From NCBI GenBank assembly GCA_038245785.1, contig JBBRSB010000017.1, positions 10,942 through 74,941 of the forward strand: a stretch of 64,000 nucleotides of DNA, given 5' to 3'. Both the position numbers and the translations under genes were made by a program. Shown here piece by piece: positions 1,526 to 56,468 of this stretch (its first letter is position 1; each line of letters starts with the position of its first letter). The notes under the pieces were generated by a model, which was given only the letters and a program-made list of their open reading frames with translations, was not told the DNA's origin and did no database searches. The stretch comes from Gloeobacterales cyanobacterium. Lineage in GTDB: Bacteria > Cyanobacteriota > Cyanobacteriia > Gloeobacterales > PMM-0068.

Positions 1526-3397
1526 TTGTTTGTTAAAACAATAGACACCACACCCTGTTCCGTCTGTAAGGAAAGAGCTTCCCCCGTGATATCTAAAGAA
1601 ATAAATGCTAGCGCTCGGCAGGCTATTGAAGAGCGGAGTAAGCGCAATAATCTGCGTCGGACCAAAATTGTGGCAACAGTAGGGCCTGCTACGGATGATC
1701 CGAAGGTGCTCAAAGAACTGATTCAAGCCGGAGCCACTACCCTCCGCCTCAATTTTTCTCATGGCGTTCATGAGGAACACCGCAAGCGTATCAGCCGGAT
1801 CAGGCAGATTTCTTTTGAACTCAATCAGCCTGTAGCCATTTTGCAAGACCTGCAGGGACCGAAAATTCGCTTAGGCAAGTTCAATACGCCCATAGACCTG
1901 AAAGTGGGTGACCCCTATATTTTGACCAGTCGAGAAGTGGAGTGTGGGCCGGAAGTCGGCTGGATTTCCTACGATCGTCTGGCCGAAGAAGTTCCGGTCG
2001 GTTCTGCGATTCTGCTGGACGACGGCAAGGTGGAGATGCGCGTAGAGTCGATAGACCTTGTGCATAAAAATCTGCATTGCGTAACCGTCTGCCCTGGCAA
2101 GCTTTCAAGCAATAAAGGGGTTAATTTCCCCAATGTGTCGCTTTCGGTGCGGGCTCTGACCGATAAAGACCGAGAAGATCTGATTTTTGGACTCAATCAA
2201 GGGGTGGATTGGGTAGCCCTGAGCTTTGTGCGGGAAGCCAGCGATGTCTATGAACTCAAGGAACTGATTGCCCAGCAGAAAAAACGGGTCCCTGTCATTG
2301 TCAAAATTGAAAAGTTCGAAGCGATCCAGAATATTGACAGCATCCTTGCTGCTGCTGATGGTCTGATGGTCGCCCGTGGAGACTTAGGGGTCGAGATGCC
2401 CGCAGAAGAAGTTCCAATTTTGCAGAAGTTGCTGATTCGGATGGCGAACGGGGCGGGTAAGCCTGTGATTACCGCTACCCAGATGCTAGACAGCATGGTC
2501 AATAATCCAAGGCCGACGCGGGCAGAGGTTTCAGATGTAGCCAATGCCATCCTCGATGGGACCGATGCTGTCATGCTTTCCAATGAAACGGCTGTTGGTG
2601 CCTTCCCTGTCAATGCGGTGGAGACGATGGTTCGTATCGCTCTGCAAATTGAGCATAAACTGCCTCAACGCAGTCAAGTCACGCCTGGTCACTCGATTAC
2701 TGATGCCATTGCCAATGCCGTTGCTGGGGTCGCTGACCAGCTCAGTGCTGCAGCCATTGTCACCTTGACCAAGAGTGGAGCCACGGCCCGAAATGTAAGC
2801 AAGTTTAGACCCGCTAATTCTATTCTTGCTGTTACGCCGCTCACAGAAGTGGCCCGCCAACTACAACTCGTTTGGGGAGTGCGACCCTTGCTCGTTCTAG
2901 ATTTACCTTCCACCCGTCAAACCTTCCAGGCCGCTGTGTCCGTAGCCCTAGAAGAAGGTTTACTGCAGCAGGGCGATTTGGTCGTGATGACCGCAGGCAC
3001 TCTAACGGGCATCTCTGGCTCCACAGACCTTCTGAAAGTGGAAATTGTCACTACGATGCTGGGTCAGGGTACGCCCGTGGGTCGAGGGACCGTGAGTGGG
3101 CGTTCCCGCGTCTTCAAGGCTGGTTCTACGGTGGATGATGTTGCCAAAGGAGACATTCTAGTGGTGTCTCAGACCAATGCTGACTATATCGCAGCGATGC
3201 AAAATGCAGGCGGCATCATTGTGGAAGAGGATGGGTTCACATCCCATGCTGCGGTGGTGGGACTTCGCCTAGGGGTTCCTGTACTGCTTGGGGTCAGAGG
3301 CTGTACCCAGATTATTGCCGATGGCATTGTCATTACCCTGGATTCTCAGAGAGGGGTCGTTTACTCCGGTAGCACAGGAAAGGCAGGAGATTTCTAG
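1526..3397 (+). CDS. pyk: pyruvate kinase with C-terminal PEP-utilizer mobile domain
   Basis: Motifs RRTKIVATVGPA, LRLNFSHG, MVARGDLGVE and ATQMLDSM. The C-terminal GGIIVEEDGFTSHAAVVGLRLGVPVLLG is a PEP-utilizer swivel domain. The true start may be in-frame GTG 1586, preceded by GGAAAGAG, rather than TTG 1526. Confidence 0.95.
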   Translation: MFVKTIDTTPCSVCKERASPVISKEINASARQAIEERSKRNNLRRTKIVATVGPATDDPKVLKELIQAGATTLRLNFSHGVHEEHRKRISRIRQISFELNQPVAILQDLQGPKIRLGKFNTPIDLKVGDPYILTSREVECGPEVGWISYDRLAEEVPVGSAILLDDGKVEMRVESIDLVHKNLHCVTVCPGKLSSNKGVNFPNVSLSVRALTDKDREDLIFGLNQGVDWVALSFVREASDVYELKELIAQQKKRVPVIVKIEKFEAIQNIDSILAAADGLMVARGDLGVEMPAEEVPILQKLLIRMANGAGKPVITATQMLDSMVNNPRPTRAEVSDVANAILDGTDAVMLSNETAVGAFPVNAVETMVRIALQIEHKLPQRSQVTPGHSITDAIANAVAGVADQLSAAAIVTLTKSGATARNVSKFRPANSILAVTPLTEVARQLQLVWGVRPLLVLDLPSTRQTFQAAVSVALEEGLLQQGDLVVMTAGTLTGISGSTDLLKVEIVTTMLGQGTPVGRGTVSGRSRVFKAGSTVDDVAKGDILVVSQTNADYIAAMQNAGGIIVEEDGFTSHAAVVGLRLGVPVLLGVRGCTQIIADGIVITLDSQRGVVYSGSTGKAGDF

Positions 3398-3472
3398 AGG
3401 TTGGCCTATTCTCTGCACTTTGGTTGACGAAGTTGCATTTAATTCTTAGAATTGATTTAGTCAACTAATTGC

Positions 3473-4150
3473 TTGTTTTCCAAGCTGATAGAGGCTCAGA
3501 AAATGACTACTCCAATTTTAGAGAAGGCGCTTCGTGAGGCTCCCATTTCTGTGGTGGAAGCAGTAACCCGTGTCCTTGAAGAATCTCATCGGCAACCGAC
3601 TAAAGCTGCTTTCTTCGCCCGTAGTATCAATGCCCTAATGGAAGTCAGCGAGGGAACTTCTCTCGTGGATGTGATGGCTGCCCCCACAGACCCAGCGGTG
3701 TTGCTTGGAATTCTTGAACGTCCAGAGGTACTGAAGCAGCTTGCAGGGGTAGACCCCTTAATTCCAGCCCGCATTCGTGGAATCAGACTTAAGCAGGAAC
3801 TCCTCAGTATGGAAGGAGGCGTTGTTTCCAGTGAACAAGTGGCAAAGCTCCTCAATCTCACCCGTCAAGGGGTGGATAAGCGACGGGCCAGTGGCAAGCT
3901 AATTGGCATATCTATGGGTAGACGTGGTTACGCTTATCCCGTTTGGCAATTTCAGGATGGGCAGGTTCTGCCTGGGCTTGAGAATGTACTAAAAGCGATG
4001 AAAGAGCATGCCCCCTGGACTCAAGTGATGTTCATGCTCACAGGGGATCTCCGTCTCAAGGGGGAGACTCCTTTGGCACAGTTACGTCAGGGAGATATTG
4101 ATTCTGTAGTGCAGGCAGCGCGGTGCTATGGCGAACAAGGCGCAGCCTGA
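3473..4150 (+). CDS. Xre/MbcA/ParS-like antitoxin (HTH plus DUF2384-like C-terminus), extended N-terminus
   Basis: HTH-like SSEQVAKLLNLTRQGVDKRR and C-terminal ETPLAQLRQGDIDSVVQAARCYGEQG. It overlaps the downstream RES gene by 23 nt. The likely start is ATG 3503. Confidence 0.7.
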   Translation: MFSKLIEAQKMTTPILEKALREAPISVVEAVTRVLEESHRQPTKAAFFARSINALMEVSEGTSLVDVMAAPTDPAVLLGILERPEVLKQLAGVDPLIPARIRGIRLKQELLSMEGGVVSSEQVAKLLNLTRQGVDKRRASGKLIGISMGRRGYAYPVWQFQDGQVLPGLENVLKAMKEHAPWTQVMFMLTGDLRLKGETPLAQLRQGDIDSVVQAARCYGEQGAA

Positions 4151-4742
4151 CGAACCTTTGAATCCTCACCCAGAGCCACCAGAGAATCTGGCAGCGCAGG
4201 AACTGTCCATCAAGCAGTTGGACGGGCCGTGGTACCGCCTGCATTCGTCTTCGAGGCAAGCGTTGTACTTTGGATGTAGTGGAACCAATCGTTTCGATGC
4301 TCCTCAGCGGGAATATGGCATTCTCTACGTTGGAATAGATGAATATGGCCCGTTTATTGAGAGTTTTGGACGTGTGCATGGAAAGAGAGGAGTCGAACTC
4401 TCCTTGCTGAAAACTAAAAATCTTTCTCGAATTGAATCAGACAGAGCGCTCAACTTGGTGGATATGACAGGCAAGGGCTTGGTATTGCTGGGAGCCGATG
4501 CTCGGCTTGCTTCTGGAGACTACCGTGTAGCTCAACGGTGGGCACAAGCTTTATGGCAACATCCCAGTCAACCGGACGGATTAATCTATCACTCGCGCCA
4601 TGATGATGAACGGGTCTGCGGTGCCATCTTTGACCGAACTAGTAAGAATTTAAGTGAACATAACCTGGGCAGTCTTGCAGACCAACAAAATGCTCGATTA
4701 CTAGCGGCACTGCTCGACCACTATGAGTTTGCCTTGCTATAG
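4128..4742 (+). CDS. RES domain toxin (NAD+-targeting RES/MbcT family)
   Basis: R..E..S signature context: NRFDAPQREYGILYVG ... LIYHSRHDDERVCGAIFDR. It is translationally coupled to the upstream Xre-like gene. Confidence 0.85.
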   Translation: MANKAQPDEPLNPHPEPPENLAAQELSIKQLDGPWYRLHSSSRQALYFGCSGTNRFDAPQREYGILYVGIDEYGPFIESFGRVHGKRGVELSLLKTKNLSRIESDRALNLVDMTGKGLVLLGADARLASGDYRVAQRWAQALWQHPSQPDGLIYHSRHDDERVCGAIFDRTSKNLSEHNLGSLADQQNARLLAALLDHYEFALL

Positions 4743-4815
4743 CTTGCCGTAGCTCTCTGATACAATTAAGGTCATACGTTCACATCTCCGTGATGCGTAG
4801 CCTGTTCTCTAATCC

Positions 4816-7800
4816 ATGACTGAACATAACTACAATTGGAAACGCTTCTTTTGTCCACGTGAAGGTCGTCTCGACCTATTATCTGACGGAGGTTATCTTG
4901 TTGACCCAGAGGCAGACTGGGCGAAGTACCTTAGCCAGGATCTGAAAGAATTCAGCGCCATAATCGATGCTCCCTGCCTAATACTGCTCGGCGAACGTGG
5001 CATAGGGAAATCTCGATTTCTCAAAGCCCAAAAAAACAGTATTGATCAACGGGTTAAGGAAAGAGGAGGAACGCTTTTATGGCTAAACCTCAATTCATTT
5101 AGTAGTGATAGCACTCTAATAGATGAGCTATTTAAGAGCCGCGAATTCATCGATTGGACGACAGGATCTCATGAACTTCACCTCTGGCTGGATAGCTTTG
5201 ATGAGTGCCAATTACACATCAAAACTTTAGAGGGTCTGCTCATCCGTAAACTCGAGCCTCATACTGAAAAAATAGAGCGGTTATTCCTCCGTATTGCCTG
5301 TCGCACAGCTGGATGGCCCAAAAGTTTGGAACAGGAATTAAATCAATTATGGAAAGACAAAGCACTGAGAGTCTATGAATTAGCCCCTTTGCGCCGTATC
5401 GATGTGAGAGAAGCAGCAACTAAAAATAATTTAGTTCCAGAGGAGTTCTTCGTTGAAGTTAGGCGTACCCAAACTACACCTTTTGCTATAAAGCCTGTCA
5501 CTCTAGACTTTCTTATCGATCTCTACAAACAGAATCAGCATCTGCCACAGACCCAATCCGAATTGTACTTACAGGGATGTCAACTTCTATGTAAAGAGAG
5601 TCGCAACTTAGAATTAATGAGAAAGCTCACATTTCAAAAACGTATGGCTATAGCCTCACGTATTGCGGCACTTACCCTTTTCACTAACCGATCTGCAATC
5701 TGGACAGAAACAGAGCAAGGAAATATGCCTGATGGGGACATAACTATCGAGCAAATGTGTGGAGGTCAGGATAGTGCAGACATGAATGGACTCCCCAAAG
5801 AATTTGAGGTAGAGCGACCTGAGATTGAGGAAACTCTCGCTACAGGATTATTTTCAGCCCGTGGAGTAGGGCGCATAGGTTGGGCACACCAAAGCTATGC
5901 AGATTACCTCGCTGCAAAGTACCTCAAAGACCGCAAGCTAGAACTCCCCCAAATGATGTCTCTCATAACTCATCCAGATGATCCAGAGAAGCATTTAGTC
6001 CCACAACTTTATGAAGCCGCTGCTTGGCTTGGCACGATGGACTCAGGAGTATTTCAGGAAATCATGAGAACAGATCCTGATGTTTTACTCCTTAGTGATG
6101 TGGCATCAGTAGATGAAGCAAACCGTGCCGCTCTTGTAGAAGAGTTGTTGAAGTTAATTAATGAGGGGAAGATAAATACGTGGAGCTATAGGCAGTATTC
6201 AAAGTTAAAACACTCAAACATTGAACAGCAATTGCGCCTTTATCTGCGAGACAAGAGTAAAACGACTGATGCCCATAAAGTTGCGATCGAAATAGCAGAA
6301 TCCTGTAATGTTCGATTACTTCAACAATATTTAGTAGACATTGCATTAGAGACTACTGAGTCTATCGAAGTACGGGAGAACGCAGCTCGAGCAGTTAGTT
6401 CCATTGGAGATGAGCATACAAAAAAACTCTTGAAACCTCTGGCGACTGGTGATGCAGGAGAAGATCCACGTGATCAACTAAAGGGCTATGGGCTGAAAGC
6501 AATATGGCCCGAAGGCATAAGCGCCCAAGAGTTATTTACTTTACTTACACCACCTAAGCAAAATAACTATTTTGGAGCTTACAATAAATTTATTTATGAT
6601 GATTTAGTAGACGGTCTTCAACCAAAAGACTTACCTATTGCTCTCAACTGGATAGAAAATGAACCTGAATGCGTACATGATGCCTTGCATCTATTTAGCG
6701 ATCTCGCAGATGCTATCTTGACCTTAGCTTGGAAGCATCTACTAGCTGTTCATGATGTGTTGACAGGTTTTGCTAAAGTTGCACTAAAGCGCCTAAAAAG
6801 TGATGGCTATATCATTCAGAAAAATGGGGATTCATCATTTTATACTGAGTTGTATAATGATGAGACTAAGCGACTTACTCTTGTCAAAGAACTAGTTTCA
6901 TTAGTCTCAAGATCTGAGCGGGATAATGATGCCAATTATTCTTCCTTAGTACACAGTAGTGATATTCCTTGGATGATTGAATGTCTCCAGGCATCAAATG
7001 ATAATAAGGAGGAAAAGGTCTGGACTAGGCTTCTAAAAAGAGCATGGCTTGATGAATCTGATAATCCTAAATATTGTGATGCCATTATTAATGCATCTGA
7101 AATTAATCAAACTCTCAGAGATTTTTTTACTCTGCCTGCAGTTGTCTTCGACTCAGCGCAAGCCCAACAGATGATAGATGAGTACCAGCTTTTTGAGGCA
7201 TACGAAGAACAAGATAGACAGAGGAAAGCACGACTTCATATAGGCCGAAATCCCTCACAGAAAGTTGAAGAATGCCTGAATGCATTCGAGTCAGGAGATA
7301 TGGATGCTTGGTGGCACTTAAATTGGTTTTTGACCTTTAGTTTAGAGAGTAAATCTTGTAGTGAAATAGAACCTGATCTAACTACATATCCAGGGTGGAT
7401 AGCATCTACTACTGCTACTCAGAGAAGGATTATAAATGCAGCCCAGCGTTACATTTTAGAAGGAGAGCCACAAATAAGTGAATGGTTAGGCAAAAACAAA
7501 ATCCATCGACCCGCTTATGCAGGGTACAGAGCATTACAGCTTCTCATAAAAGAGAATTTTACTTCTATTGAGGCTATCCCTGCTGAAGTGTGGGAGAAGT
7601 GGGCATCAATTATTCTTAAGTACCCTACTGCGGAAAATTCAGATGCTGAAAAATTTCAAAAAGAACTGTTCAAGAAAGCGTATCAGTATGCTCCCAATAA
7701 TATACTTTCAACCTTAAAAATTCTAATCGATGAGGAGATTCAGGAAGGACATGGTTATATTTTTATCATTAATAGAGTGAAATTCTGTTGGGATAAACAG

Positions 7801-9078
7801 ATTGCCCAATTGTTATTAACAAAAGCTCAGGAAGATAACTTAAAAATTTCCCATCTGAAGTGTCTACTTGAGGTGCTTCTTGAACAAAATGATTTGGATG
7901 CTATTTCCTTCGGGGAATCTCTTGTACAGTTTAAACAACAAAAAGCTGGTCACCGAAAACGCAGACGAGGCTCTTTTCAAAAAGCAGTTATTGCATCACG
8001 TCTTCTAATAAGCCATTCATCTAAGATGCATTGGGAGACTATTTGGTCTGCTATCAGACAGGACATTTATCTAGGCAGAAAAATTGCTGAAGCTGTAGCG
8101 TCTTACTGTGATATGAATGGTTTTGCTAGTAATAGTCTTTGCTTCCAAGAAGAACAGAGTGCTGACTTGTATATCTGGCTTGGTCACCAATATCCTTACT
8201 TACAAGATCCTCAACGTGATAATGGAGTTTATACTCCTGGAGTAAGAGACTATATTACCCAATTGAAATACTCTTTACTTAACCAGCTAAAAGAGCGTGG
8301 CACAGTCCAAGCCATCGAGCAAATGCAGAGAATTATGCTGGAATTTACTGATCTTGATTGGCTAAAGTTGACTTTGAAGGAAACTAAGTACAAGACTTAT
8401 CAAAACATCTGGAGAGCACCTGAACCGCAAGATGTACTCAAGCTGACACAAGGCCAACACAAACGCTTGGTGCAAAACGGTGAACAACTTCTTGAAGTAT
8501 TGATTGAATCTCTGAAAAGGTTAGAACAGGAACTGCAGGGTGAGACGCCGCAAGCAATTGATCTATGGAATGAGATTGACAAGAATATTTTCAGACCTAA
8601 AGATGAGAATAGATTCTCTGATTACGTGAAGAGACATCTTGAAAAAGACCTCAAGTCAGCGCAGATATTAGTTAATCGAGAGGTCGAATTTCGCCGTGGT
8701 ACTGGTGGACAACCTGGAGAACGACTTGATATTAAAGTAGATGTTTTTATTCCAGATAATAATGGAGAAAAAATTAAAATCACTGCCATCATCGAAGTAA
8801 AAGGTTGCTGGAATACTGGTCTCAATTCTGCCATGAGAGATCAACTTGCAGGCCGCTATCTCGAAGAAAGCCAGTGTTATCATGGGCTCTACTTAGTTGG
8901 ATGGTATTTTTGCCCTCAATGGGATGAGAATCATCAACCGAACAAAAATGCTCTCCGGCTTACTACGGAGTTCCGTGATATCGACAGCGCACAGAGCCAC
9001 TTCGACGAACAGGCAGCAGCTCTATCTTCAGATGGTAAGCAGGTCCGAGCCTTTGTCATAAACACTGCATTGCGATAG
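4816..9078 (+). CDS. 1420-aa STAND (NACHT-like) P-loop NTPase with HEAT/helical repeat body and C-terminal PD-(D/E)xK nuclease-like domain
   Basis: Walker A LILLGERGIGKS (nt 4990-5013). NACHT-style Walker B LWLDSFDE (nt 5182-5205). HEAT-like IEVRENAARAVSSIGDEHTKKLLKPL. C-terminal E...D...ExK pattern: NREVEF (about 8673), LDIKVD (8725-8742), IIEVKG (8788-8805). It is a single uninterrupted ORF in an AT-rich segment. Confidence 0.8.
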   Translation: MTEHNYNWKRFFCPREGRLDLLSDGGYLVDPEADWAKYLSQDLKEFSAIIDAPCLILLGERGIGKSRFLKAQKNSIDQRVKERGGTLLWLNLNSFSSDSTLIDELFKSREFIDWTTGSHELHLWLDSFDECQLHIKTLEGLLIRKLEPHTEKIERLFLRIACRTAGWPKSLEQELNQLWKDKALRVYELAPLRRIDVREAATKNNLVPEEFFVEVRRTQTTPFAIKPVTLDFLIDLYKQNQHLPQTQSELYLQGCQLLCKESRNLELMRKLTFQKRMAIASRIAALTLFTNRSAIWTETEQGNMPDGDITIEQMCGGQDSADMNGLPKEFEVERPEIEETLATGLFSARGVGRIGWAHQSYADYLAAKYLKDRKLELPQMMSLITHPDDPEKHLVPQLYEAAAWLGTMDSGVFQEIMRTDPDVLLLSDVASVDEANRAALVEELLKLINEGKINTWSYRQYSKLKHSNIEQQLRLYLRDKSKTTDAHKVAIEIAESCNVRLLQQYLVDIALETTESIEVRENAARAVSSIGDEHTKKLLKPLATGDAGEDPRDQLKGYGLKAIWPEGISAQELFTLLTPPKQNNYFGAYNKFIYDDLVDGLQPKDLPIALNWIENEPECVHDALHLFSDLADAILTLAWKHLLAVHDVLTGFAKVALKRLKSDGYIIQKNGDSSFYTELYNDETKRLTLVKELVSLVSRSERDNDANYSSLVHSSDIPWMIECLQASNDNKEEKVWTRLLKRAWLDESDNPKYCDAIINASEINQTLRDFFTLPAVVFDSAQAQQMIDEYQLFEAYEEQDRQRKARLHIGRNPSQKVEECLNAFESGDMDAWWHLNWFLTFSLESKSCSEIEPDLTTYPGWIASTTATQRRIINAAQRYILEGEPQISEWLGKNKIHRPAYAGYRALQLLIKENFTSIEAIPAEVWEKWASIILKYPTAENSDAEKFQKELFKKAYQYAPNNILSTLKILIDEEIQEGHGYIFIINRVKFCWDKQIAQLLLTKAQEDNLKISHLKCLLEVLLEQNDLDAISFGESLVQFKQQKAGHRKRRRGSFQKAVIASRLLISHSSKMHWETIWSAIRQDIYLGRKIAEAVASYCDMNGFASNSLCFQEEQSADLYIWLGHQYPYLQDPQRDNGVYTPGVRDYITQLKYSLLNQLKERGTVQAIEQMQRIMLEFTDLDWLKLTLKETKYKTYQNIWRAPEPQDVLKLTQGQHKRLVQNGEQLLEVLIESLKRLEQELQGETPQAIDLWNEIDKNIFRPKDENRFSDYVKRHLEKDLKSAQILVNREVEFRRGTGGQPGERLDIKVDVFIPDNNGEKIKITAIIEVKGCWNTGLNSAMRDQLAGRYLEESQCYHGLYLVGWYFCPQWDENHQPNKNALRLTTEFRDIDSAQSHFDEQAAALSSDGKQVRAFVINTALR

Positions 9079-9084
9079 AAACTC

Positions 9085-9150
9085 ACAGAAAGATCTGTTT
9101 GCGAATGCTAGACCAACCTCATTAGGCCGCTATTAAAACCATACTGATCA
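9085..9150 (+). repeat. 66-nt direct repeat, copy 1 (non-coding, just after the STAND stop)
   Basis: 56/66 nt identical to 10364-10429 at a constant offset of 1279 nt. In one frame it reads QKDLFANARPTSLGRY-stop. Confidence 0.85.
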
Positions 9151-9470
9151 GCCAAAGCAATTGCCACGGCCAATATTTCGGCAATCCCAGGGGCCAGCGC
9201 AGACAATCGACGACTGGAGAAAGGGATAAGGCTTCCGCTAGATAACGGCTCACACCGAAGTCTCAGGAACCATGCAGCGGGGAGTGTCATCATACCGAGA
9301 GTAATAAGTAAGTCTCTACATCTAAAAAATAGCCTATGCAACCGAAAGATTCTCCCTTGTAGTAAAGAGGCCTCCTCTTTACAATTTTCCTATGAGAAAT
9401 CTGCTTAAGCATAGAACCATTCTGTGATGGACAAGAGCCTCTAGAAAACTTCAGTCAAAATTATAAAAAA

Positions 9471-10415
9471 ATGAAACATCAGCTTATTTTCATTCATGGA
9501 ATAGGGAATGGAGAATCTACAGAAGAGTATGAATCTCTTTTTCAAGGGATTTCGTGCGCCTATCAGCAAGAGACAGGTATCTCAAAGAAAGAATTTGGTC
9601 AATTATTCGAACCTGTCTTCGTCAACTGGCAAAAAGTCACCTATGACGCGGAACGACATGTATTCATAAATTCTTTTCCCGATTTAGCGGTTGGCGGAGG
9701 AATCCTTGGCAATGCCAGTGATTGGAATCCCATGGTTGTGCGTGAAGTTCGTGCATTGCGATATTTTATGACCTTCTTCCTAGGAGATATCATTGCCTAC
9801 ACTTCTCCAAAAGATAATGGCATTCGACAGGCTGTCTGGAATGATATGAGCACTCCCCTACAAACTAGAGATATTCCTTTCAGCATTATTGCTCATTCAC
9901 TAGGATCGGTTGTAGCCTTTGATTTTTTAACAACTCTCCTCAATCCTGACAATCAGGGCCGTGAGGCTATCTTTGTGACCAAAGGAGAAAGCCCTCGTAT
10001 CAATATCAGCCAGGAGAAAGTCAATCAAATTAAAAGAAACTTTCGTCATCTTTTTACCATGGGTGCACCGATTAATCTCTTTTTCCTAAAAAGCCTTCAA
10101 CAGGGTAATCTTGCATCTATCAAAAACCCTATCAGTGCGGATAAAAATCAGCAGTGGATTAATTTCTATGACTATCAAGATGTGGTAGCTTTTCCATTGA
10201 AACAGTTATTCTCTGCTGCGGATAATGACATCAGTTCTATTGAAGAAGTGGTGGTGCAGACAGGTTCCATGGTCATAGATTCTCACACCACCTACTGGCA
10301 AAACAAAACTGTAGCTAAGAAAATCGCCCAAACACTTAAAGATTCTGTGAGTACAGCACTATTACAGAAAGATCTGTCTGCGAGTAGTAGACCAACCTCA
10401 GTAGGCTGCTACTAA
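9471..10415 (+). CDS. alpha/beta-hydrolase fold serine esterase/lipase-like protein
   Basis: N-terminal LIFIHGIG. Nucleophile elbow IIAHSLGSVVAF (GxSxG type). Candidate acid YDYQDVVAF and histidine IDSHTTYW. Confidence 0.7.
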   Translation: MKHQLIFIHGIGNGESTEEYESLFQGISCAYQQETGISKKEFGQLFEPVFVNWQKVTYDAERHVFINSFPDLAVGGGILGNASDWNPMVVREVRALRYFMTFFLGDIIAYTSPKDNGIRQAVWNDMSTPLQTRDIPFSIIAHSLGSVVAFDFLTTLLNPDNQGREAIFVTKGESPRINISQEKVNQIKRNFRHLFTMGAPINLFFLKSLQQGNLASIKNPISADKNQQWINFYDYQDVVAFPLKQLFSAADNDISSIEEVVVQTGSMVIDSHTTYWQNKTVAKKIAQTLKDSVSTALLQKDLSASSRPTSVGCY

Positions 10416-10429
10416 AACCATGCTGACTA
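10364..10429 (+). repeat. 66-nt direct repeat, copy 2 (encodes the C-terminal 16 aa and stop of the hydrolase)
   Basis: Pairs with 9085-9150. Reads QKDLSASSRPTSVGCY-stop. Confidence 0.85.
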
Positions 10430-10515
10430 ACAGAAGATTGAGAGAGAAATAAACTAGATTCAATCGCTACTCTTTTGCGACGCGATGGGGAACGACAATG
10501 TAGCCTTCTTCGCTG

Positions 10516-11193
10516 TTACCCAAGACCTAGATTACGGGCCACGCCCCAATACCACCAGTAAGCGCCGATATAGGCACAAAGAATGCCATCTAACTGGTCT
10601 TCTAGGGCTTTCATCTGAACACCCTTTATCGGAATAGGGGGTAAGGCTGGTAACGACAGCCTAGGCGTGTGGAGGGTTAGTTCTTCTAAAATCAGGCTGC
10701 GGTAGCGCTCTAGTTCTAGCCGTCGCTCAGCCAAGGAGCCTTTTTTATACTTGAGAATTCGCGATAAATCGAAGAGATGAACCATGGCTGGATGGGGGAA
10801 GCATTCTATCTGATAACGTCCTGGGCGCAAGGGCTCTATGGCATCTGCATGTTTAAATTTCCGCGCTTCTAAGGCTTTACCTAAGGCTACAGTCCGTTTG
10901 GCAAAAGGTCTTTGCAAATTGGCCGGATAGCAGCCTGCATGATATTTTCCAAAATAACGATGGGTCAACTTATCGGGCAACCGCATCCCGGTTTCATTGG
11001 GAATAATCGTTGGCGCATCCACAGCCACCAGAGCAGGACCATCTCCCGTCACCCGGTCCACCCAAGCCAAAATGTCATCAAACGGTTGGTGACAAACCAT
11101 TTCTAAAAGCGTCAATTGCTCCCCATCCCATTCCAGTGCGGCTAATCCACTCGGTCCTGTACTCCAGCCAAAGTCAATGCCTAAAAACTTCAA
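10516..11193 (-). CDS. DUF429 domain protein (predicted RNase H-like nuclease)
   Basis: N-terminal MKFLGIDFGWS...ALVAVDAPTIIPN and C-terminal DQLDGILCAYIGAYWW resemble the DUF429 family. Confidence 0.7.
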   Translation of the reverse strand: MKFLGIDFGWSTGPSGLAALEWDGEQLTLLEMVCHQPFDDILAWVDRVTGDGPALVAVDAPTIIPNETGMRLPDKLTHRYFGKYHAGCYPANLQRPFAKRTVALGKALEARKFKHADAIEPLRPGRYQIECFPHPAMVHLFDLSRILKYKKGSLAERRLELERYRSLILEELTLHTPRLSLPALPPIPIKGVQMKALEDQLDGILCAYIGAYWWYWGVARNLGLG

Positions 11194-15579: not shown

Positions 15580-15693
15580 TTTCATATTATTGTCATATTA
15601 ACTCCACCAAATCTTCCAAATCCTTTCGCAATTGCTTTAAAATATAGGTAGTTAAAAGGGTTAAAACTTAGTAGGAAGAAACACAAATACCCT

Positions 15694-15945
15694 TTGGGGA
15701 GTGAAGTCGTGATTACACAATCCAAGCAGTACGCAACCAAGCTTTTTGCAACAGAATTCGGTCAAGTTTTCTACGCATACCAGGGCTTGATCAATGCTTG
15801 CGGTCCAGAGTGCCATTCCTGGCATGTGGTGCTGGAAACGCTTGATGGTAAGCTCGTTCGCACCAATCAGGCCATTCCTGTAGTAGCAGACCGGGAGCCC
15901 ACCTTTAAAGATGCCTGTGCTCTTGCTGAAATGCTGGCCGCTTAG
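15694..15945 (+). CDS. hypothetical small protein
   Basis: The translation looks protein-like compared with the Cys/Trp-rich antisense ORF. A possible GTG start at 15707 follows GGGGAG. Confidence 0.4.
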   Translation: MGSEVVITQSKQYATKLFATEFGQVFYAYQGLINACGPECHSWHVVLETLDGKLVRTNQAIPVVADREPTFKDACALAEMLAA

Positions 15946-16241
15946 TGTTCTCCAACAAAATCTAAGCAATCGATAGCCGCTTCTGTCAAAGCTGCCCGTG
16001 GATTCACAGGGCATTTTAGGTGATATTCGCCCGTGAAGTAGCGGCAGCGCGAACAAGGAATTTCGTGAAGCGTTTTAATGTCTTGGACGCCCTTACCCGC
16101 CCAAGCCAAGAAATCCACAATAATCATCACCGTTACGGTACTAATGGTGATGAAGGTAAAAAAGGCGTAAAGAGTCATTCTATATAGCTGTCCCACTCTG
16201 TCACAGAATAACAGAGTATGTATTCTGCCTAAATACGGCAA
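15942..16241 (-). CDS. small membrane protein with Cys-rich C-terminus
   Basis: TM FFTFITISTVTVMIIVDFLAW followed by CSRCRYFTGEYHLKCPVNP. The likely start is the internal Met at about 16178. Confidence 0.5.
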   Translation of the reverse strand: MPYLGRIHTLLFCDRVGQLYRMTLYAFFTFITISTVTVMIIVDFLAWAGKGVQDIKTLHEIPCSRCRYFTGEYHLKCPVNPRAALTEAAIDCLDFVGEH

Positions 16242-16349
16242 AATGTAACTTTACATATGTAGGATTGGTTGTCGCTCATCACTACTTTAAAGTTTTTAAG
16301 CCATGGCTGCTTATATCACAAGGTATAGATTAGCTCAGGCATTGGACAG

Positions 16350-16649
16350 TTATTTAATCAGCTCAACCGTTAAACGGAATCCAAGAGCATCTAGAATTGC
16401 ATTCAGACTTTTTAGCTCAGGGTTTCCCTTATCAGAGAGCATTCGATATAGATTTTCTCGATTTAGCTTTGTTACTTCTGCCAACTGTTTTATGCTACTG
16501 GATCTTGCTTGAGCAACATCTCGCAGAGCAAGTAAAAAGACTTCAAGGTCTTTATCTTCCAAAGTAGCATTTAGGTATTCTTGAGCCTCTAGTGGGTCTT
16601 CCAATGCTTTGATCAAATCTTCCTGATAGCCCTTGCTTCTAGTCATCAC
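16350..16649 (-). CDS. HigA-family addiction-module antidote protein
   Basis: EAQEYLNATLEDKD..VFLLALRDVAQARS..QLAEVTKLNRENLYRMLSDKGNPELKSLNAILDALGFRL matches the TIGR02684-type antidote architecture. Confidence 0.85.
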   Translation of the reverse strand: MMTRSKGYQEDLIKALEDPLEAQEYLNATLEDKDLEVFLLALRDVAQARSSSIKQLAEVTKLNRENLYRMLSDKGNPELKSLNAILDALGFRLTVELIK

Positions 16650-16737
16650 TTCTACTCCTGTAGTCCATCCAGTATTTCCTTGCTTTTTCTATGTCGCGAT
16701 TAACTAATACATCATCCAACGTGAATAATTTTATTAA
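16639..16737 (-). pseudogene. C-terminal relic of the cognate RelE/ParE-like killer gene
   Basis: A 32-codon open frame, LIKLFTLDDVLVNRDIEKARKYWMDYRSRSDD-stop, with no start codon. The stop overlaps the antidote start in the usual TA fashion. The DIEKA.K tail resembles killer-protein C-termini. An in-frame TAG lies immediately upstream. Confidence 0.45.
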
Positions 16738-16751
16738 CTACGTCAAACTGT

Positions 16752-17759
16752 TCATAGCTCACGGTATGCCTGCTCATCACCAGCTGAGTCCCATTCGCTT
16801 AATGTCGCGCAGACAGCCTTTAAGTATTCCTCATCGACTCTAGGCAAAGCGACGCTCTTCAGAACATTCATTGGGCCGTAATTTTTCAGTAGCTCCATCT
16901 CCGGCTCATTGCGGACAAGGAGAGCCCCTGCAAAGCCTAGGGAATTCACTGAAATAGACTCAAAATCTTCTTGGGAACGGGGGACCAGTAACATCCATTG
17001 CCGCGTAAGTAAAAGATTGTAGGCTCCTGACTGTTTATTCTCTGCTGTCCGAGCGCCCAAACCTACGGTATGAAGCAAAGTTTTATACTGCTCAAAAGTT
17101 GTAAGCGCTGCTTTTGAAGGGGACTCGGCCCAAGTGGGGTCTAGCTGTGCAAAGGCATGGCTGAACGGAAGTCCAGGGATGGTCCCGACAGGTCCTTGAA
17201 AAGTGGCCGTAGAAAATAAAGAAGCGATGGGAATTGGGGGACTTTCAGGAGTAGAGGCAGGAGCGAGCGGTAGAGGGACCAGTTGCAAATGCTTATGTCG
17301 CTGACTGGCACCAGCTTTTTTGCCCGCATTGTAGAAGGCTAAGCCTTCAAACTCAGCCATGCATGCCCAAAGCGCCTCAAAATCTTGCAGCGTGAGTAGG
17401 TTTTCCTGCTCCTCGAAGTCCCGTGTGATGATCAGCAGATGGTAGTTCGCCACGTTGTATTTATTGAGAAGACAGAGGTGGGTTTTGGAAATGTCAGCAA
17501 CGAAGAGGTCTTCTTCGTAGGGCAGAAAGGGATTGATTTTCTTGCCAGAAGCTTTAGCGGCTTTTTTTGCTTCACGCTTAAGGTTGAGATTGGCCAAGGT
17601 GCGAACCAGGAAATGGACCCCCCCTTGCTCTACAAACGTATGCTCCGTCGGTAACGACAGCAGGGCTCCACACGCCAGCGCATGACGGGTTTGCTCTATG
17701 ACTCTTGGCCATAAAGTGCCCGGTTTCAGCAAGAGCGTCTTCTCTTCAGTCATGGCCAT
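16752..17759 (-). CDS. ATP adenylyltransferase / Ap4A phosphorylase II-like protein
   Basis: HIT-like QRHKHLQLVPLP motif. NKYNVANYHLLIITRDFEEQ is typical of the family. Confidence 0.7.
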   Translation of the reverse strand: MAMTEEKTLLLKPGTLWPRVIEQTRHALACGALLSLPTEHTFVEQGGVHFLVRTLANLNLKREAKKAAKASGKKINPFLPYEEDLFVADISKTHLCLLNKYNVANYHLLIITRDFEEQENLLTLQDFEALWACMAEFEGLAFYNAGKKAGASQRHKHLQLVPLPLAPASTPESPPIPIASLFSTATFQGPVGTIPGLPFSHAFAQLDPTWAESPSKAALTTFEQYKTLLHTVGLGARTAENKQSGAYNLLLTRQWMLLVPRSQEDFESISVNSLGFAGALLVRNEPEMELLKNYGPMNVLKSVALPRVDEEYLKAVCATLSEWDSAGDEQAYREL

Positions 17760-52741: not shown

Positions 52742-54481
52742 TTACTTAAGAAGTTTGATTTCCTGCGAGGAGCCTGTCTGTAAAGGCAGCTTGATAGTCG
52801 AAGACTGATAATGAGCTAATCCGCCTGGATTCTCAGACTGAACCTTATCGATCACACACAGCCGACCTTTAGCATCATCTTTTAGCCATCCCTGAAGTTC
52901 AGGAGCTGTCATCGGACGATACCGACTTTTTTCGTTTGTCTTACCTTCTTTTCCTGGATAGTTGGGAGGGGATCCCCCTGAATAGCCGTTTACTACGGGT
53001 ACACCTGCTCGTAGACCTGCCCACATAGCAGAAACCTCATCAGGATAACCAGCCCAATAAGGTTCGTCTTTGTTGACCGCTGGTAAGACGTAGGCTAAGT
53101 CACATCCTTTCCCCATCAGTCCTTGTAGCTCAGTTTCTACGTTTAAAAATGAACCCTTCTCATAGCTAACAGGGTTAATCAAGATCTGTTCTGAGAGCGC
53201 AAGAACACAGACTAAACTTGATAATAGAAGCCGCCATTTTGAATTAGATATCTTTGCTTTCAAAAAAGAATCAAGACTCAACAGAACGGCAATTAACAAG
53301 AAGAAATATAGAACTAAGGAAATCCTCGCAACAGATCTGATTGCTTTCCCCCCTGGGACGAACCAGTACACTAGCTTCCAAAGGCCAAGTCCACTGAGAA
53401 AGACGACAAAAATCACCAACGAGACAAATAGACAAGCTTTAACTACATCAGCTCTTTCTTTTCCTAAAATATCATTTTTTTTAAAAACTATATAGACTGA
53501 CAAAACTGTTAGAGCCAGCACAGTAAATCCCATGAATAAACGGTGCTCATAGGACATGAGCAAATTTTTAGAGAGCGGCTCTAATAGAGGGGACCAAAGA
53601 CTATTGGGGGGGGGTAATAGCCAGGAAGACCATCGGGGTACCATTGTTGAGACTTCATATGTAGAATAACCGCCGCTAAGCAAACGACTCGTCTCTACGT
53701 AGGGTAAAAGTAGCGCAATGATCGAAGCGAACCAAACCAAAAATACTACTACTGTAGTTTTTTTGTTTTTAGTAAAATAGTCTTTGAGACCTACCCTGAC
53801 AGCCTGGTCACGATATAGAGAAACTGCCAAAAGAATGGGTAAACTCACCAGTAAAAACCAGCCTAAATAAATACCCGCAAGCAGTTGGAGATAGATAAAG
53901 ATCAATGCTAGGATAAGCCGACTATTATTTGGCTTATGGATGAATTGCCAAACGAACAAAAAGGCAAACGGCATATAAAACTGAGGAAGCAACTGTGGAC
54001 GGGCTAGCTGCACCATTCTAGGCATCCCGAATGCAAATAGGAAGCCACCTGTGGCCGATAGGATAGGACTCACCTTAAAGTGTCGCAATACATACACAAA
54101 ACTAGCGAAACAAAGTAGAGTTATGCCGATCATCCAAAGCTGTAAAGATACATCAACGGGTGAAAATCCTCTGAACAACCAATACAAAGGAGCAGAACCC
54201 CACAAATTGTCGGATAAAGTAAGTGCTTTCTTAAATGGATAGAAAAAGTTGGGCGACCAAAGACTGCCCGTATAATCTCGGTTAAAAGCTAATTGAAATG
54301 AATGCTCTAGAAAATAGTTGTTGAGCCGAGTATCTGTAGGATCCGATTGCATCTTAGAAAACCCACTTGTAATAGTGGGATAAAATGCCATAAAAACACC
54401 CAGAAGACTAATAAATGAATAGAATAAAAAAGAGATGAAAAGATTGAATATCGTTATATTATTTCTATTTGCTTTAGTCAT
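52742..54481 (-). CDS. polytopic membrane protein, GT-C-like glycosyltransferase candidate
   Basis: 579 aa with more than 10 predicted TM segments and a C-terminal soluble domain. The gene is AT-rich and clusters with a GT2 and a flippase-like gene. Confidence 0.45.
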   Translation of the reverse strand: MTKANRNNITIFNLFISFLFYSFISLLGVFMAFYPTITSGFSKMQSDPTDTRLNNYFLEHSFQLAFNRDYTGSLWSPNFFYPFKKALTLSDNLWGSAPLYWLFRGFSPVDVSLQLWMIGITLLCFASFVYVLRHFKVSPILSATGGFLFAFGMPRMVQLARPQLLPQFYMPFAFLFVWQFIHKPNNSRLILALIFIYLQLLAGIYLGWFLLVSLPILLAVSLYRDQAVRVGLKDYFTKNKKTTVVVFLVWFASIIALLLPYVETSRLLSGGYSTYEVSTMVPRWSSWLLPPPNSLWSPLLEPLSKNLLMSYEHRLFMGFTVLALTVLSVYIVFKKNDILGKERADVVKACLFVSLVIFVVFLSGLGLWKLVYWFVPGGKAIRSVARISLVLYFFLLIAVLLSLDSFLKAKISNSKWRLLLSSLVCVLALSEQILINPVSYEKGSFLNVETELQGLMGKGCDLAYVLPAVNKDEPYWAGYPDEVSAMWAGLRAGVPVVNGYSGGSPPNYPGKEGKTNEKSRYRPMTAPELQGWLKDDAKGRLCVIDKVQSENPGGLAHYQSSTIKLPLQTGSSQEIKLLK

Positions 54482-54542
54482 CGGCTTCTCCAGAAGGGGT
54501 AATAAAGTCAGTAGATTAAGTTACATGCTTTGATAACCGTCT

Positions 54543-55493: not shown

Positions 55494-55766
55494 GAATAGA
55501 ATGTGTCCCCATTACTTGCGTTTTCAGAAGGCTACAGAAGAAGCTGGGCCAACTCAAATCTGAAGTGCATAGCCTAGCATATCGTTGTTAATTAGTGTAA
55601 TGTAATCAGGCTAAACACATCTTGTTTCTAGAATACTTGCTAGGCAAGGTTTCCAGAGTTTAGATGCATTGACTCTTGACTCACTAGCAGACAAGCCAGA
55701 CTTACTTTGAGAAGAACATCAAAATTAGTTTGCAGGCTCGATTTGTTATCACAATGCGGTTTTTTC

Positions 55767-56468
55767 TTATTTGTAATTTGGTGAAAATAAATTGTATTTT
55801 AAAATACAATAAATAGCTTGGAATCCATCTTTCCAGCCTATTTTTTTCCCTTCCTTATAGGTGCGTCCATAATAAGAAATTCCAACTTCATAAATACGAC
55901 ATCCTGTTTTAGCTACTTTTGCGGTAATTTCGGGTTCAAAGCCAAAACGATTCTCCTGGATTTTGATTGATTGAATGATCTCTTTTCGAAAGGCTTTATA
56001 GCAGGTTTCCATATCAGTAAGGTTTATGTTAGTAAGCATATTGGATAAGGTCGTTAAAAATCTGTTGCCCAACATATGCCAATAATAAACTACTCTATGA
56101 GGCCTACTTCCTTGAAATCGAGAACCGAAAACTACATCCGCTTTGTTTTTCAGGATAGGTTCTATCATTAGCGCATATTCTTGAGGATCGTATTCCAAAT
56201 CAGCATCTTGGACAATAACTATATCTCCACTTGCTGCGGAGAATCCAGTTCGTAATGCAGCACCCTTTCCTTGATTGACACTATGATAAATAATCTTATC
56301 AACTTGCAACTCCATAGTTGATTTTAGAAGATCTCTAGTTCCATCAGTTGAACAATCATCCACAATGATAATTTCACAATTCTCGATAGGAGATGCTTTA
56401 ATAGCTTCAACAACTTGAGCAATTGTTCCAAGTTCGTTAAAGCAAGGAATAACAACAGATAATTTCAT
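55767..56468 (-). CDS. GT2 polyprenyl-phosphate glycosyltransferase (Dpm1/ArnC/GtrB-like)
   Basis: [30 protein letters not shown] and FGFEPE motifs. Confidence 0.9.

Follow-up and report, generated by a model that had tools for sequence, protein, structure and literature searches.

The product of a 1420-aa gene in the window (the whole stretch of 64,000 nucleotides analysed here, from a Gloeobacterales cyanobacterium) is probably an antiviral STAND protein of NLR/Avs type that acts on its own, with a NACHT NTPase, a diverging sensor and a C-terminal PD-(D/E)xK-type nuclease. According to the same reading, the gene arrived in a 5.87-kb block along with an independent Xre-like/RES gene pair, and the hydrolase gene that follows is a resident of the locus. 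The features are collected in Table 1.

The open reading frame of 1420 aa and its P-loop are as an earlier note on this DNA had described them, with Walker A (GERGIGKS) at aa 59-66 (nt 4990-5013) and Walker B (LWLDSFDE) at aa 123-130 (nt 5182-5205). A conserved leader of about 50 aa (YNWKRFxCPR...DGGYLxDP) precedes the NTPase module, which consists of nucleotide-binding, helical and winged-helix subdomains. In an alignment of 35 full-length sequences, G59, E60, G62, G64, K65, L125, D126, D129 and E130 are invariant and S127 nearly so, and each of these residues recurs in 90% or more of 120 homologues. R163 (in CRTA) and H358 (in AHQSYAxxLAA) are also invariant among the NACHT homologues. The Pfam NACHT match fell below threshold (14.9 versus 26.7 bits). 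When aa 1-460 were modelled with AF2 (pLDDT 83.4) and compared with the PDB by Foldseek, the 15 best matches were to NOD2, NLRC4, NAIP, NLRP1, NLRP3 and NLRP7 (E 1.3e-8 to 5e-5). The modelled fold bears out the proposed STAND NTPase and supports its placement in the NACHT clade.

The middle of the protein, aa 461-1200, is its fastest-evolving part: identity to the closest relative drops to 41-55%, compared with about 70% for the NTPase and 75% for the C-terminal domain. The description of this region as HEAT-like repeats stands only in part: one HEAT_2 match in Pfam (aa 488-552) speaks for it, itself sub-threshold (E 0.002, 18.8 bits versus a cut-off of 27.7). That single weak match suggests that aa 461-1200 may contain helical repeats.

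The E...D...ExK motifs that had been picked out in the tail are real and conserved across 35-120 homologues: D1305 (LDIKVD; nt 8728-8730), E1327 and K1329 (IIEVKG; nt 8794-8796 and 8800-8802), Q1343 and Y1348 are invariant, and E1289 (NREVEF) is nearly so. The other key residues are E1264, D1269, K1272 and Cys1331/1354/1366. An AF2 model of the domain (pLDDT 85) has an alpha-beta-beta-beta-alpha-beta core in which D1305 begins strand 2, the ExK closes strand 3 and Q...Y belongs to the helix that follows. Comparison with known nucleases gave no significant match of sequence or fold, and searches of Pfam, PDB sequences and PHROGs with this domain returned nothing. The weak fold matches are mostly PD-(D/E)xK-type proteins, the best being PspGI in the PDB (E 0.064) and viral PD-(D/E)xK-type proteins in BFVD (E 3.5e-3 and weaker). 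One homologue carries a helix-hairpin-helix DNA-binding motif appended after the domain. Judged by conservation and the AF2 model, with fold matches that are weak, the nuclease-fold tail of the earlier note holds up as a conserved domain of PD-(D/E)xK type, and a nuclease is its probable, predicted identity. Because relatives carry quite different tails at the same junction, namely CHAT (E 3.3e-12), TIR_2 (E 1e-14), SIR2_2 (E 1.6e-18), an alpha/beta-hydrolase or a transmembrane tail, the C-terminus is an effector slot.

The NACHT family is found in many bacterial phyla and in archaea, is common in filamentous cyanobacteria, and occupies variable neighbourhoods enriched in defence genes. The 137 genes that neighbour its relatives gave 142 PADLOC family matches (PbeA, BrxH, DruE, Dpd, DrmD, PsyrT and others), compared with 5 for the window's 51 remaining ORFs, a crude control given the redundant families and different genomes. 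A PglZ gene lies upstream of the NACHT homologue in L004. Of 2.9 million viral contigs, on the other hand, only one carries a relative. No neighbour family recurs across 85 loci, which suggests that the protein acts alone. A defence role is the best reading of the 1420-aa protein, and the proposal is supported by the defence-rich neighbours of its relatives, the swapping of death effectors and homology to EruA and HyoA (see below).

Might this STAND NTPase instead serve as a transcription or signalling regulator, or, in multicellular cyanobacteria, as a factor in self/non-self recognition or programmed death, with a C-terminal domain that binds or regulates and is no active nuclease? Many clades of STAND proteins lack an immune role (Lee et al. 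2026, PMC13581612), and such a role would fit both the abundance of the family in filamentous cyanobacteria and a C-terminal domain without significant match to characterised nucleases. We consider it unlikely, however, since the catalytic-type D/ExK residues are invariant, CHAT, TIR and SIR2 death effectors fill the same slot in relatives, the family spans many phyla and archaea in variable, defence-enriched surroundings, and the homology is to models that NCBI names antiphage proteins.

How did the putative defence gene come to lie where it does? In the sister genome L005, pyruvate kinase, hydrolase, DUF429 and nei follow one another in the same order as in the window (nucleotide identity 92-95%), and neither the gene list nor blastn places an Xre, RES or NACHT gene between pyruvate kinase and hydrolase; window positions 3399-9271 are therefore a 5.87-kb indel. 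Junction alignments leave about 25 bp in the sister genome in place of this block, which holds the Xre-like, RES and NACHT genes and, at its right end, a scrap of an ABC-2 permease gene. A second, shorter permease remnant is present in the sister genome too; its core, 10364-10426, is repeated directly at 9085-9147 (63 nt, 87%). A promoter-like site lies ahead of the Xre-like gene, just inside the block's left end, and the sequence around it aligns as conserved in L001 and L002. The NACHT and hydrolase genes are indeed AT-rich, as claimed earlier (GC 0.411 and GC3 0.345; GC 0.408 and GC3 0.371), versus GC 0.49-0.52 in the adjoining genes, and the lowest GC of any gene-length (4.26 kb) segment of the window begins at 6001, within the NACHT gene. 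The neighbours had also been named correctly: RES (Pfam E 4.9e-11), DUF429 (E 1.6e-22) and Fpg/Nei. Signs of mobility support the view that the NACHT gene sits in horizontally acquired DNA: the indel with respect to L005, the low GC and the occurrence of NACHT homologues on plasmids.

Table 1. Features of the inserted block and its right flank, in window positions
Feature	Position	Strand	Basis or remarks
Inserted block, 5.87 kb	3399..9271	+	blastn of window against L005, junction alignments, L005 gene list
Promoter-like site TTGACG-17-TAGAAT	3424..3452	+	consensus scan, not above shuffled expectation
Putative antitoxin (Xre/AbiEi-like), 225 aa	3473..4150	+	weak Pfam matches: AbiEi_4 E 0.0056, Xre-MbcA-ParS_M E 0.022
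RES-domain toxin (predicted), 204 aa	4128..4742	+	Pfam RES E 4.9e-11, 43.3 bits versus cut-off 23.2
NACHT-sensor-effector protein, 1420 aa, putative stand-alone Avs-like STAND	4816..9078	+
Leader and NACHT NTPase module, aa 1-460	4816..6195	+	AF2 model, Foldseek, conservation
Presumed sensor, aa 461-1200 (740 aa)	6196..8415	+	identity profile, HEAT_2 match
Predicted PD-(D/E)xK-type effector domain, aa ~1255-1420	8578..9075	+	conservation, AF2, weak fold matches
ABC-2 permease fragment, last 57 aa	9086..9256	-	tblastn 77% identity, E 1.5e-22; junction alignment
Terminator-like hairpin, then T-run	9362..9382	+	consensus scan, not above shuffled expectation
Ser-Asp-His alpha/beta-hydrolase, 314 aa, resident	9471..10415	+	L005 copy, triad conservation
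Second, shorter ABC-2 permease 3' end remnant	10364..10436	-	repeat search, tblastn

It is the upstream Xre-like/RES pair, not the hydrolase, that travels with the NACHT gene. The end of the putative antitoxin gene overlaps the RES start by 23 nt, and of 14 metagenome loci, 12 keep an Xre-like homologue upstream of RES and two contain only partial RES matches; no solved relative of the pair was found by sequence. A functional three-gene system, in which the pair might for example regulate or back up the NACHT protein, would account for the presence of all three genes in one inserted block, their co-linearity in the closest relatives L001 and L002, the RES-NACHT gap of just 73 bp, and a Granulicella contig that repeats the triad (identity to the window 29% for NACHT, 29% for Xre-like and 40% for RES). 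Nevertheless, its probability is low: Xre/RES is missing near NACHT relatives at 81 of 84 other loci, none of the 14 metagenome loci of the pair has a NACHT match (including all four with more than 1 kb downstream of RES), the L002 RES gene is split in pieces beside an intact NACHT ORF, and composition differs sharply (GC 0.50-0.52 for Xre/RES versus 0.41 for NACHT).

The 314-aa ORF downstream is the serine hydrolase that had been described, with AHSLGS present and S143, D237 and H272 invariant among 99 family members (H9-G10 is kept in 96%). Its proposed union with the NACHT protein in a two-gene defence module did not survive. The hydrolase and NACHT genes do lie side by side in one orientation and are about equally rich in AT, and an alpha/beta-hydrolase domain is fused in the C-terminal effector slot of the distant relatives L056 and L066, but such a module is very improbable: those fused domains match the window hydrolase only at the nucleophile-elbow motif (2.6 bits); in the sister genome a hydrolase copy with 94% aa identity occupies the corresponding position, flanked by pyruvate kinase and DUF429, and the NACHT gene is absent; none of the 84 loci of NACHT relatives has a hydrolase homologue within the available flanks, the closest, L001 and L002, included; the intergenic gap is 392 bp and holds the gene scrap and, in resident DNA, the terminator-like hairpin; and homologues of the window hydrolase lie in unrelated gene contexts. 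On these genome comparisons, the hydrolase belongs to the resident genes, has its own origin and stands outside the system.

How might the stand-alone NACHT protein act? It is probably an Avs-like abortive-infection protein, a phenotype that we infer. By analogy with Avs proteins that have been characterised, the sensor would bind a conserved phage protein, binding would release autoinhibition, the NACHT module would oligomerise in a nucleotide-dependent manner, and the clustered C-terminal nuclease domains would become active, degrade DNA and abort the infection. Nuclease activity, trigger, oligomerisation and defence phenotype are all predicted elements of this scheme.

Several known systems invite comparison. 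The accompanying pair resembles RES-Xre type II toxin-antitoxins (MbcTA/ParST type) in its RES match above the Pfam cut-off and in its upstream, overlapping partner gene, a pairing kept at most metagenome loci; it differs in that the partner has 225 aa and weak Xre/AbiEi-type matches. With the animal NLRs NOD2, NLRC4 and NLRP3, the 1420-aa protein shares the NACHT fold over about 420-520 aligned columns, a D-[GS]-x-D-E Walker B and the winged-helix histidine motif, whereas sequence identity is 10-15%, the LRR sensor, CARD and PYD domains are absent, and the effector is C-terminal in the same polypeptide. The canonical Avs1-5 and bNACHT proteins (Gao et al. 2022; Kibby et al. 2023) likewise combine a STAND NTPase, a large repeat sensor and an exchangeable death effector (among them nuclease, TIR, SIR2 and protease) in a single, horizontally mobile gene of defence islands. 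In those proteins the effector is usually N-terminal, the NTPase sits in the centre and the sensor comes last (Lee et al. 2026, PMC13581612), whereas the window protein runs NTPase, sensor, C-terminal effector. PADLOC 2023 left the protein unrecognised, and no Avs or bNACHT model in it matches.

The earlier note took this order for an architecture outside the named systems. The protein is, however, collinear with two named NCBIfam antiphage models, NF058535 ('NACHT domain-containing antiphage protein EruA') and NF058534 ('HyoA'), and the order NTPase-repeats-C-terminal domain is therefore already found among named systems. The homology is full-length, collinear from just after the P-loop into the C-terminal domain (EruA, aa 109-1364, E 1e-69; HyoA, aa 174-1373, E 1.5e-49), with profiles of comparable size (1318 and 1430 positions versus 1420 aa), the same single-gene organisation, and an NTPase at the extreme N-terminus that leaves no space for an N-terminal effector. 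The scores lie far under the equivalog cut-offs (236 bits versus 1000 and 169 versus 1200), so the window's protein is not one of those proteins; moreover, seven further members of its family score alike, and the family is therefore a separate sister family of EruA/HyoA. EruA and HyoA are presumably Erebus and Hypnos (van den Berg et al. 2024). Erebus and Hypnos have been grouped with bNACHT64 as 'Avs10', a reported sensor of the HK97-fold phage major capsid protein (Lee et al. 2026, Nature 657:735, PMC13581612). By its profile matches, the window protein is a distant relative of named antiphage proteins: it adds, from a sister family, a member to a kind that is already known.

The two open reading frames (ORFs) that an earlier note had proposed as a two-gene defence module are present as called, one encoding a 1420-aa protein and the other, downstream on the same strand, a 314-aa alpha/beta-hydrolase. 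In the larger protein, the claimed Walker A (G59-E-R-G-I-G-K65-S, aa 59-66) conforms to GxxGxGK[ST] and the claimed Walker B (L-W-L-D126-S-F-D129-E130, aa 123-130) to hhhhD[GS]xDE. The Walker glycines, K65, D126, D129 and E130 are invariant in an alignment of 35 full-length homologues, and among 120 homologues at least 90% retain the key Walker residues. Two further marks of the NACHT clade, as known from NLRs, are a sensor-1 arginine that follows strand 4 and a winged-helix histidine motif (similar to hxHxSxxEFLAA); R163, within L-R-I-A-C-R-T-A, and H358, within G-W-A-H-Q-S-Y-A-D-Y-L-A-A, are both invariant. With 17 homologues as input, AlphaFold2 (AF2) gave a model of aa 1-460 (pLDDT 83.4) whose top 15 Foldseek matches in the PDB are the NACHT modules of NOD2, NLRC4, NAIP, NLRP7, NLRP3 and NLRP1 (E 1.3e-8 to 5e-5), with ORC, Cdc6 and RFC ranking lower at E 1e-4 or weaker. 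Taken with R163, the winged-helix motif around H358 and a Walker B of the form D-S-x-D-E, these fold matches identify the protein, on its predicted structure, as a NACHT-clade STAND NTPase, as had been suspected. The Pfam NACHT model PF05729 reaches 14.9 bits against a gathering score of 26.7, the family having diverged too far for it; the newer PF28130 is carried by some of the relatives, and the N-terminal profile found nothing among PDB sequences. Ahead of the P-loop there is only a leader of about 50 aa (YNWKRFxCPR...L-x-D-G-G-Y-L-x-D-P), strongly conserved in nearly all homologues, which leaves no space for an N-terminal effector.

The C-terminal region had been read as a nuclease from an E...D...ExK pattern. 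The pattern is real and strongly conserved, with D1305, E1327, K1329, Q1343 and Y1348 invariant and E1289 nearly so. An AF2 model of aa 1200-1420 (pLDDT 85; model residue n is protein residue n+1199) has a helix at 65-83, strands at 85-88, 107-114 and 120-131, a helix at 140-152 and a strand at 157-164, an alpha-beta-beta-beta-alpha-beta order. D1305 lies at the start of strand 2, E1327-x-K1329 at the end of strand 3 and Q1343...Y1348 on the next helix, so that the model has the defining features of a PD-(D/E)xK core, in which strand 2 opens with an Asp and strand 3 carries (D/E)xK; the D/ExK plus Q...Y arrangement recalls nucleases of the RecB/Cas4 type. A significant match to a known nuclease, however, did not emerge. 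Foldseek searches of the domain against the PDB and BFVD returned nothing at E 0.001 or better: the best PDB match was the restriction endonuclease PspGI (E 0.064, probability 0.41), and the BFVD matches, at E 3.5e-3 and weaker, included a DUF2726 protein (E 4e-3), a restriction endonuclease, an Mrr-like protein and the PD-(D/E)XK nuclease of HGTV-1 (probability 0.94, E 0.06). The C-terminal profile gave only spurious matches to PDB sequences (E 0.087 and 1.9), Pfam searches with the window segment and 25 family members a single match, to PDDEXK_3 (E 0.14), and PHROGs unnamed weak matches. Because no database match is significant, we rate the nuclease assignment, drawn from the modelled fold and the conserved residues, as probable, if with good confidence. 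Three cysteines (Cys1331, Cys1354 and Cys1366), one of them directly after ExKG, are also invariant or nearly so and may make a metal or Fe-S site, and in one homologue (P0080) a helix-hairpin-helix DNA-binding motif (HHH_3, E 6.7e-13, aa 1385-1442) is fused after the C-terminal domain.

Between these two domains the protein evolves quickly. Identity to the closest relative is about 70% in the NTPase module, 41-55% over aa 461-1200 and 75% over aa 1201-1420, and a fast middle between constrained ends is the pattern that diversifying pressure on a sensor would be expected to leave, with engine and effector domains on either side. The middle had been labelled HEAT-like repeats; a single Pfam match, below threshold, is what stands behind that label.

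The C-terminal domain is itself exchangeable. Several relatives match the window protein over aa 1-1210/1220 only, and reading of their ORFs places the start of the differing tails at one junction, just after a conserved RRxTWxP motif. The tails comprise a CHAT protease (loci L018, L030 and L064; Pfam E 3.3e-12), a TIR domain (L035; TIR_2, E 1e-14), a SIR2 domain (L059; SIR2_2, E 1.6e-18) and an alpha/beta-hydrolase (L056 and L066; Hydrolase_4, E 5.7e-5, below the cut-off). Two others have no Pfam match: the last 85 aa or so of L037 and L054, predicted to be transmembrane with one helix, and a conserved helical domain of about 135 aa at the C-terminus of L020, L023, L027 and L083 that ends ...GGKAFIFEALQKASDQWWVAPFVKAIEAG. 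The family clearly has a C-terminal effector slot. NLR-like defence proteins typically exchange death effectors in this way, and the swapping is the strongest evidence, albeit indirect, for an immune role in this analysis.

Over 1100 homologues, the majority with a length near 1400 aa, came from a protein search. Genome scanning located relatives in Cyanobacteria, Bacteroidota, Chloroflexota, Acidobacteriota, Planctomycetota, Firmicutes, Actinobacteria, Proteobacteria and Myxococcota, and among archaea in methanogenic or ANME lineages; tblastn added plasmid homologues in Nostoc PCC 7120, Dolichospermum, Bradyrhizobium and Bacillus cereus, whose annotation is uninformative, and IMG/VR a single viral contig. 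The scan, at one genome per species, contributed 80 loci of relatives, and 4 found earlier bring them to 84. Across 85 loci no neighbour family recurred outside close lineages, which makes the NACHT gene a stand-alone unit. The genes around the relatives are rich in defence families: 137 flanking genes yielded 142 matches to PADLOC families (E 1e-8 or better) and the window's 51 other ORFs 5, a rough control in which family matches are redundant. The flanking matches include PbeA, BrxH, DruE, DpdF/J, DrmD, HmaA, PsyrT and PDC families, and in locus L004 a PglZ gene immediately precedes the NACHT homologue. Among the window's own ORFs outside the present finding, one matches DpdF (E 4.2e-22) and one PDC-M43B (E 9.2e-11).

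The history of the locus is visible in a sister-genome contig (L005) that has 92-95% DNA identity to the window. Its gene order is ECF sigma/anti-sigma, pyruvate kinase, hydrolase, DUF429, Fpg/Nei and LptC, without the Xre-like, RES and NACHT genes, and 5,873 bp in the window stand in place of about 25 bp of the sister genome (see the table for breakpoints, by blastn, and other coordinates).

Coordinates of features in the window and in related loci
Feature	Locus	Position	Strand	Detail
Pyruvate kinase 3' end	window	3233-3400		about 170 bp; copy precedes block in L001 and L002
Breakpoints against L005	window	3398/3399 and 9271/9272		ends of inserted block
NACHT gene	window	4816-9078	+	
Conserved leader	window	4816-4965	+	aa 1-50
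Cys1331, Cys1354, Cys1366	window	8806-8808, 8875-8877, 8911-8913	+	
ABC-2 permease, last 57 aa	window	9086-9256	-	77% identity, E 1.5e-22
ABC-2 permease 3'-end copies	window	9085-9147 and 10364-10426		63-nt direct repeats, 87% identity; flank hydrolase
Terminator-like hairpin	window	9362-9382		between NACHT gene and hydrolase
Hydrolase gene	window	9471-10415	+	
DUF429 gene	window	10516-11193	-	resident
AT-rich stretch	window	about 15600-17000		
AT-rich stretch	window	52742-56468		
ABC-2 permease 3'-end copies	L001	5888-6054 and 12077-12250		flank Xre-RES-NACHT
ABC-2 permease 3'-end copies	L002	843-1018 and 8149-8315		flank Xre-RES-NACHT plus DUF433 and GFA genes
RES, split	L002	2107-2719		
DUF429 gene, shorter	L004	10304-10783		
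Hydrolase homologue and neighbours	L006	3935-9146		Mastigocladopsis repens
Xre-like, RES and NACHT genes	L077	88-1841 and 2308-5880		Granulicella

Could the NACHT protein nevertheless work with one of its neighbours? The best candidate is the pair of genes that shares the inserted block. The RES domain scores 43.3 bits against a Pfam cut-off of 23.2, and the gene upstream, which overlaps it by 23 nt, encodes a 225-aa protein with weak Pfam matches to AbiEi_4 (E 0.0056) and Xre-MbcA-ParS_M (E 0.022); neither protein found anything in PDB sequences, PADLOC or NCBIfam. In 12 of 14 metagenome loci with RES relatives the partner gene precedes RES, and the remaining two contain partial RES matches only. 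With a RES toxin, a co-oriented upstream partner and a conserved pairing, the two genes conform to a RES-Xre type II toxin-antitoxin pair whose antitoxin is putatively of Xre type. The same two genes precede the closest NACHT relatives, in L001 and L002 (225-aa protein 88-89% and RES 86-90% identical), and a distant Granulicella locus (L077) has a 29%-identical NACHT gene preceded by Xre-like and RES genes (29% and 40% identical). That triad, however, is the single recurrence in a distant lineage: of the 84 NACHT loci other than the window's, 81 lack the pair, and none of the 14 metagenome RES loci has a NACHT gene, including all four with more than 1 kb downstream. Moreover, RES in L002 is broken (two called genes of 88 and 92 aa, matched by the window RES in three pieces) beside an intact 1415-aa NACHT ORF, and the pair differs in composition from the NACHT gene. 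Functional coupling of the pair to the NACHT protein is thus quite unlikely, and we take the two genes to be a toxin-antitoxin module in its own right that shares the islet.

The DUF429 gene was considered as a partner, being found by Pfam beside the L004 homologue, but tblastn recovered it in 0 of 84 loci and it is resident in the sister genome. It matches the PADLOC candidate defence family PDC-S44 (E 4.5e-90), and the shorter DUF429 gene of L004 lies by PglZ and immediately downstream of the NACHT homologue, so that the insertion site may already have been a small defence hotspot. Taken singly, the locus is an ordinary small defence islet.

The hydrolase, which the earlier note had taken as the second component, fares worst. 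As a serine hydrolase it stands: S143 (in AHSLGS), D237 and H272 are kept in all 99 family members and H9-G10 in 96%, while searches of PDB sequences, PADLOC and NCBIfam found nothing. It is also as AT-rich as had been said, with GC 0.408 (GC3 0.371), next to 0.411 (GC3 0.345) for the NACHT gene and against 0.49-0.52 in the neighbours; the lowest-GC gene-length stretch of the 64-kb window falls within the NACHT gene. But the predicted co-location fails. By tblastn a hydrolase homologue was found in 0 of 84 loci, including those of the closest relatives, L001 and L002 (NACHT 57-58% identical in aa), and the sister genome (assembly GCA_965194235.1) keeps a 94%-identical hydrolase (P0121) but has no NACHT gene. 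The other homologues are mostly cyanobacterial and lie in unrelated gene contexts, and a terminator-like hairpin separates the two genes in the window. The two-gene hypothesis is refuted, and comparison with a sister genome proves a quick way to decide, and here to correct, such plausible-looking predictions. A 'Rosetta-stone' link to the fused hydrolase domains of L056 and L066 fails as well, since only a GxSxG-type elbow is common and those domains have no specific relation to the window hydrolase. In Mastigocladopsis repens (L006), a 44%-identical hydrolase homologue lies between two Ser/Thr-kinase-WD40 (Pkinase-WD40) genes, near a trypsin-TPR gene, which suggests that the hydrolase family might itself occur in conflict or signalling contexts. 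Elsewhere in the window two further AT-rich stretches (GC 0.36-0.42) are found: one, with a 579-aa ORF without a Pfam match, an LPG_synthase_TM gene and a family-2 glycosyltransferase (52742-56468), is probably a cell-envelope island; the other has small ORFs with no Pfam match.

How did the block arrive? A transposon or integrase origin was rejected: the block has no integrase, transposase or target-site duplication, and its ends are scraps of neighbouring genes. DNA homology to L001 and L002 extends from window 3233 through the first 580 NACHT codons (78%), and scraps of former neighbours have been carried along: in the window the end of an ABC-2 permease, and in L001 and L002 a copy of the 3' end of pyruvate kinase ahead of the block. 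In L001 and L002 two permease 3'-end copies also flank the block, the right-hand one belonging to an intact gene. The second copy in the window, which places the hydrolase between direct repeats, is found in the sister genome too. Integration of a circularised window-like fragment into a resident ABC-2 gene by one crossover would be expected to give the layout of L001 and L002. The islet looks to have moved by recombination through flanking DNA that came along with it, and no integrase is evident.

Judged by its folds, conservation, domain swapping and genomic context, the NACHT protein is fairly likely to cause abortive infection as a stand-alone protein of Avs-like type. Its trigger, its activity as a nuclease and its phenotype are proposed by analogy: the sensor would bind a phage protein, the NACHT module would undergo nucleotide-dependent oligomerisation, and the C-terminal PD-(D/E)xK domains would be brought together to cut DNA. 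The analysis flags a large NACHT immune family, spread over many bacterial phyla and some archaea, with a C-terminal effector slot and a fast-evolving sensor.

How does this family relate to known systems? Two equivalog models in NCBIfam (June 2026), 'NACHT domain-containing antiphage protein EruA' and 'HyoA', match the protein, EruA in a single stretch over aa 109-1364 (profile positions 56-1272 of 1318; E 1e-69) and HyoA over aa 174-1373 (E 1.5e-49). The scores are far below the equivalog cut-offs (236 against 1000 bits and 168.6 against 1200 bits), and since seven other members also fall far short (199-322 bits for EruA, 126-195 for HyoA), the family is a sister group and not EruA/HyoA itself. 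PADLOC 2023 misses the family, and the EruA/HyoA models likewise fail to capture its members. The likeness is collinear through N-terminal NACHT, long sensor and C-terminal domain, residues 22-1340 of the L084 relative corresponding to profile positions 15-1297, and from the alignment offsets the P-loop falls close to the beginning of either profile, so that EruA and HyoA have the same order of NTPase, sensor and C-terminal domain. Our literature search found no paper with the names EruA or HyoA; we infer that they are the Erebus and Hypnos of van den Berg et al. 2024, and a link of the window family to Avs10 would follow from that identification of the names. Lee et al. 2026 (PMC13581612) place Erebus, Hypnos and bNACHT64 together as Avs10, for which the HK97-fold major capsid protein is the reported activator; by the same account Avs10 gives phage protection, and its effector domain is required for cell death.

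The earlier suggestion of an inverted domain order holds against the usual STAND layout of N-terminal effector, central NTPase and C-terminal sensor (Lee et al. 2026), but the order is not new, being that of EruA and HyoA. Kaur et al. 2020 contains nothing specific to an NTPase-sensor-C-terminal effector architecture. Compared with Avs1-5, the window protein differs in having its P-loop at aa 59-66 and variable effectors at the C-terminus. Because the swappable effector follows the sensor and does not precede the NTPase, the activation geometry may be unlike that of solved Avs complexes. Perhaps the family is a distinct Avs-type sister of Erebus/Hypnos with its own phage trigger (capsid or other), possibly a new activation geometry and Xre/RES wiring in a minority of lineages, but this fuller reading is tentative and rather doubtful. 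If characterised, the family would extend the catalogue of phage-protein-sensing Avs systems into cyanobacteria and archaea, and would test whether a C-terminal effector activates like the N-terminal ones of solved Avs structures. The locus itself is a sister-family addition to a kind of system already described.
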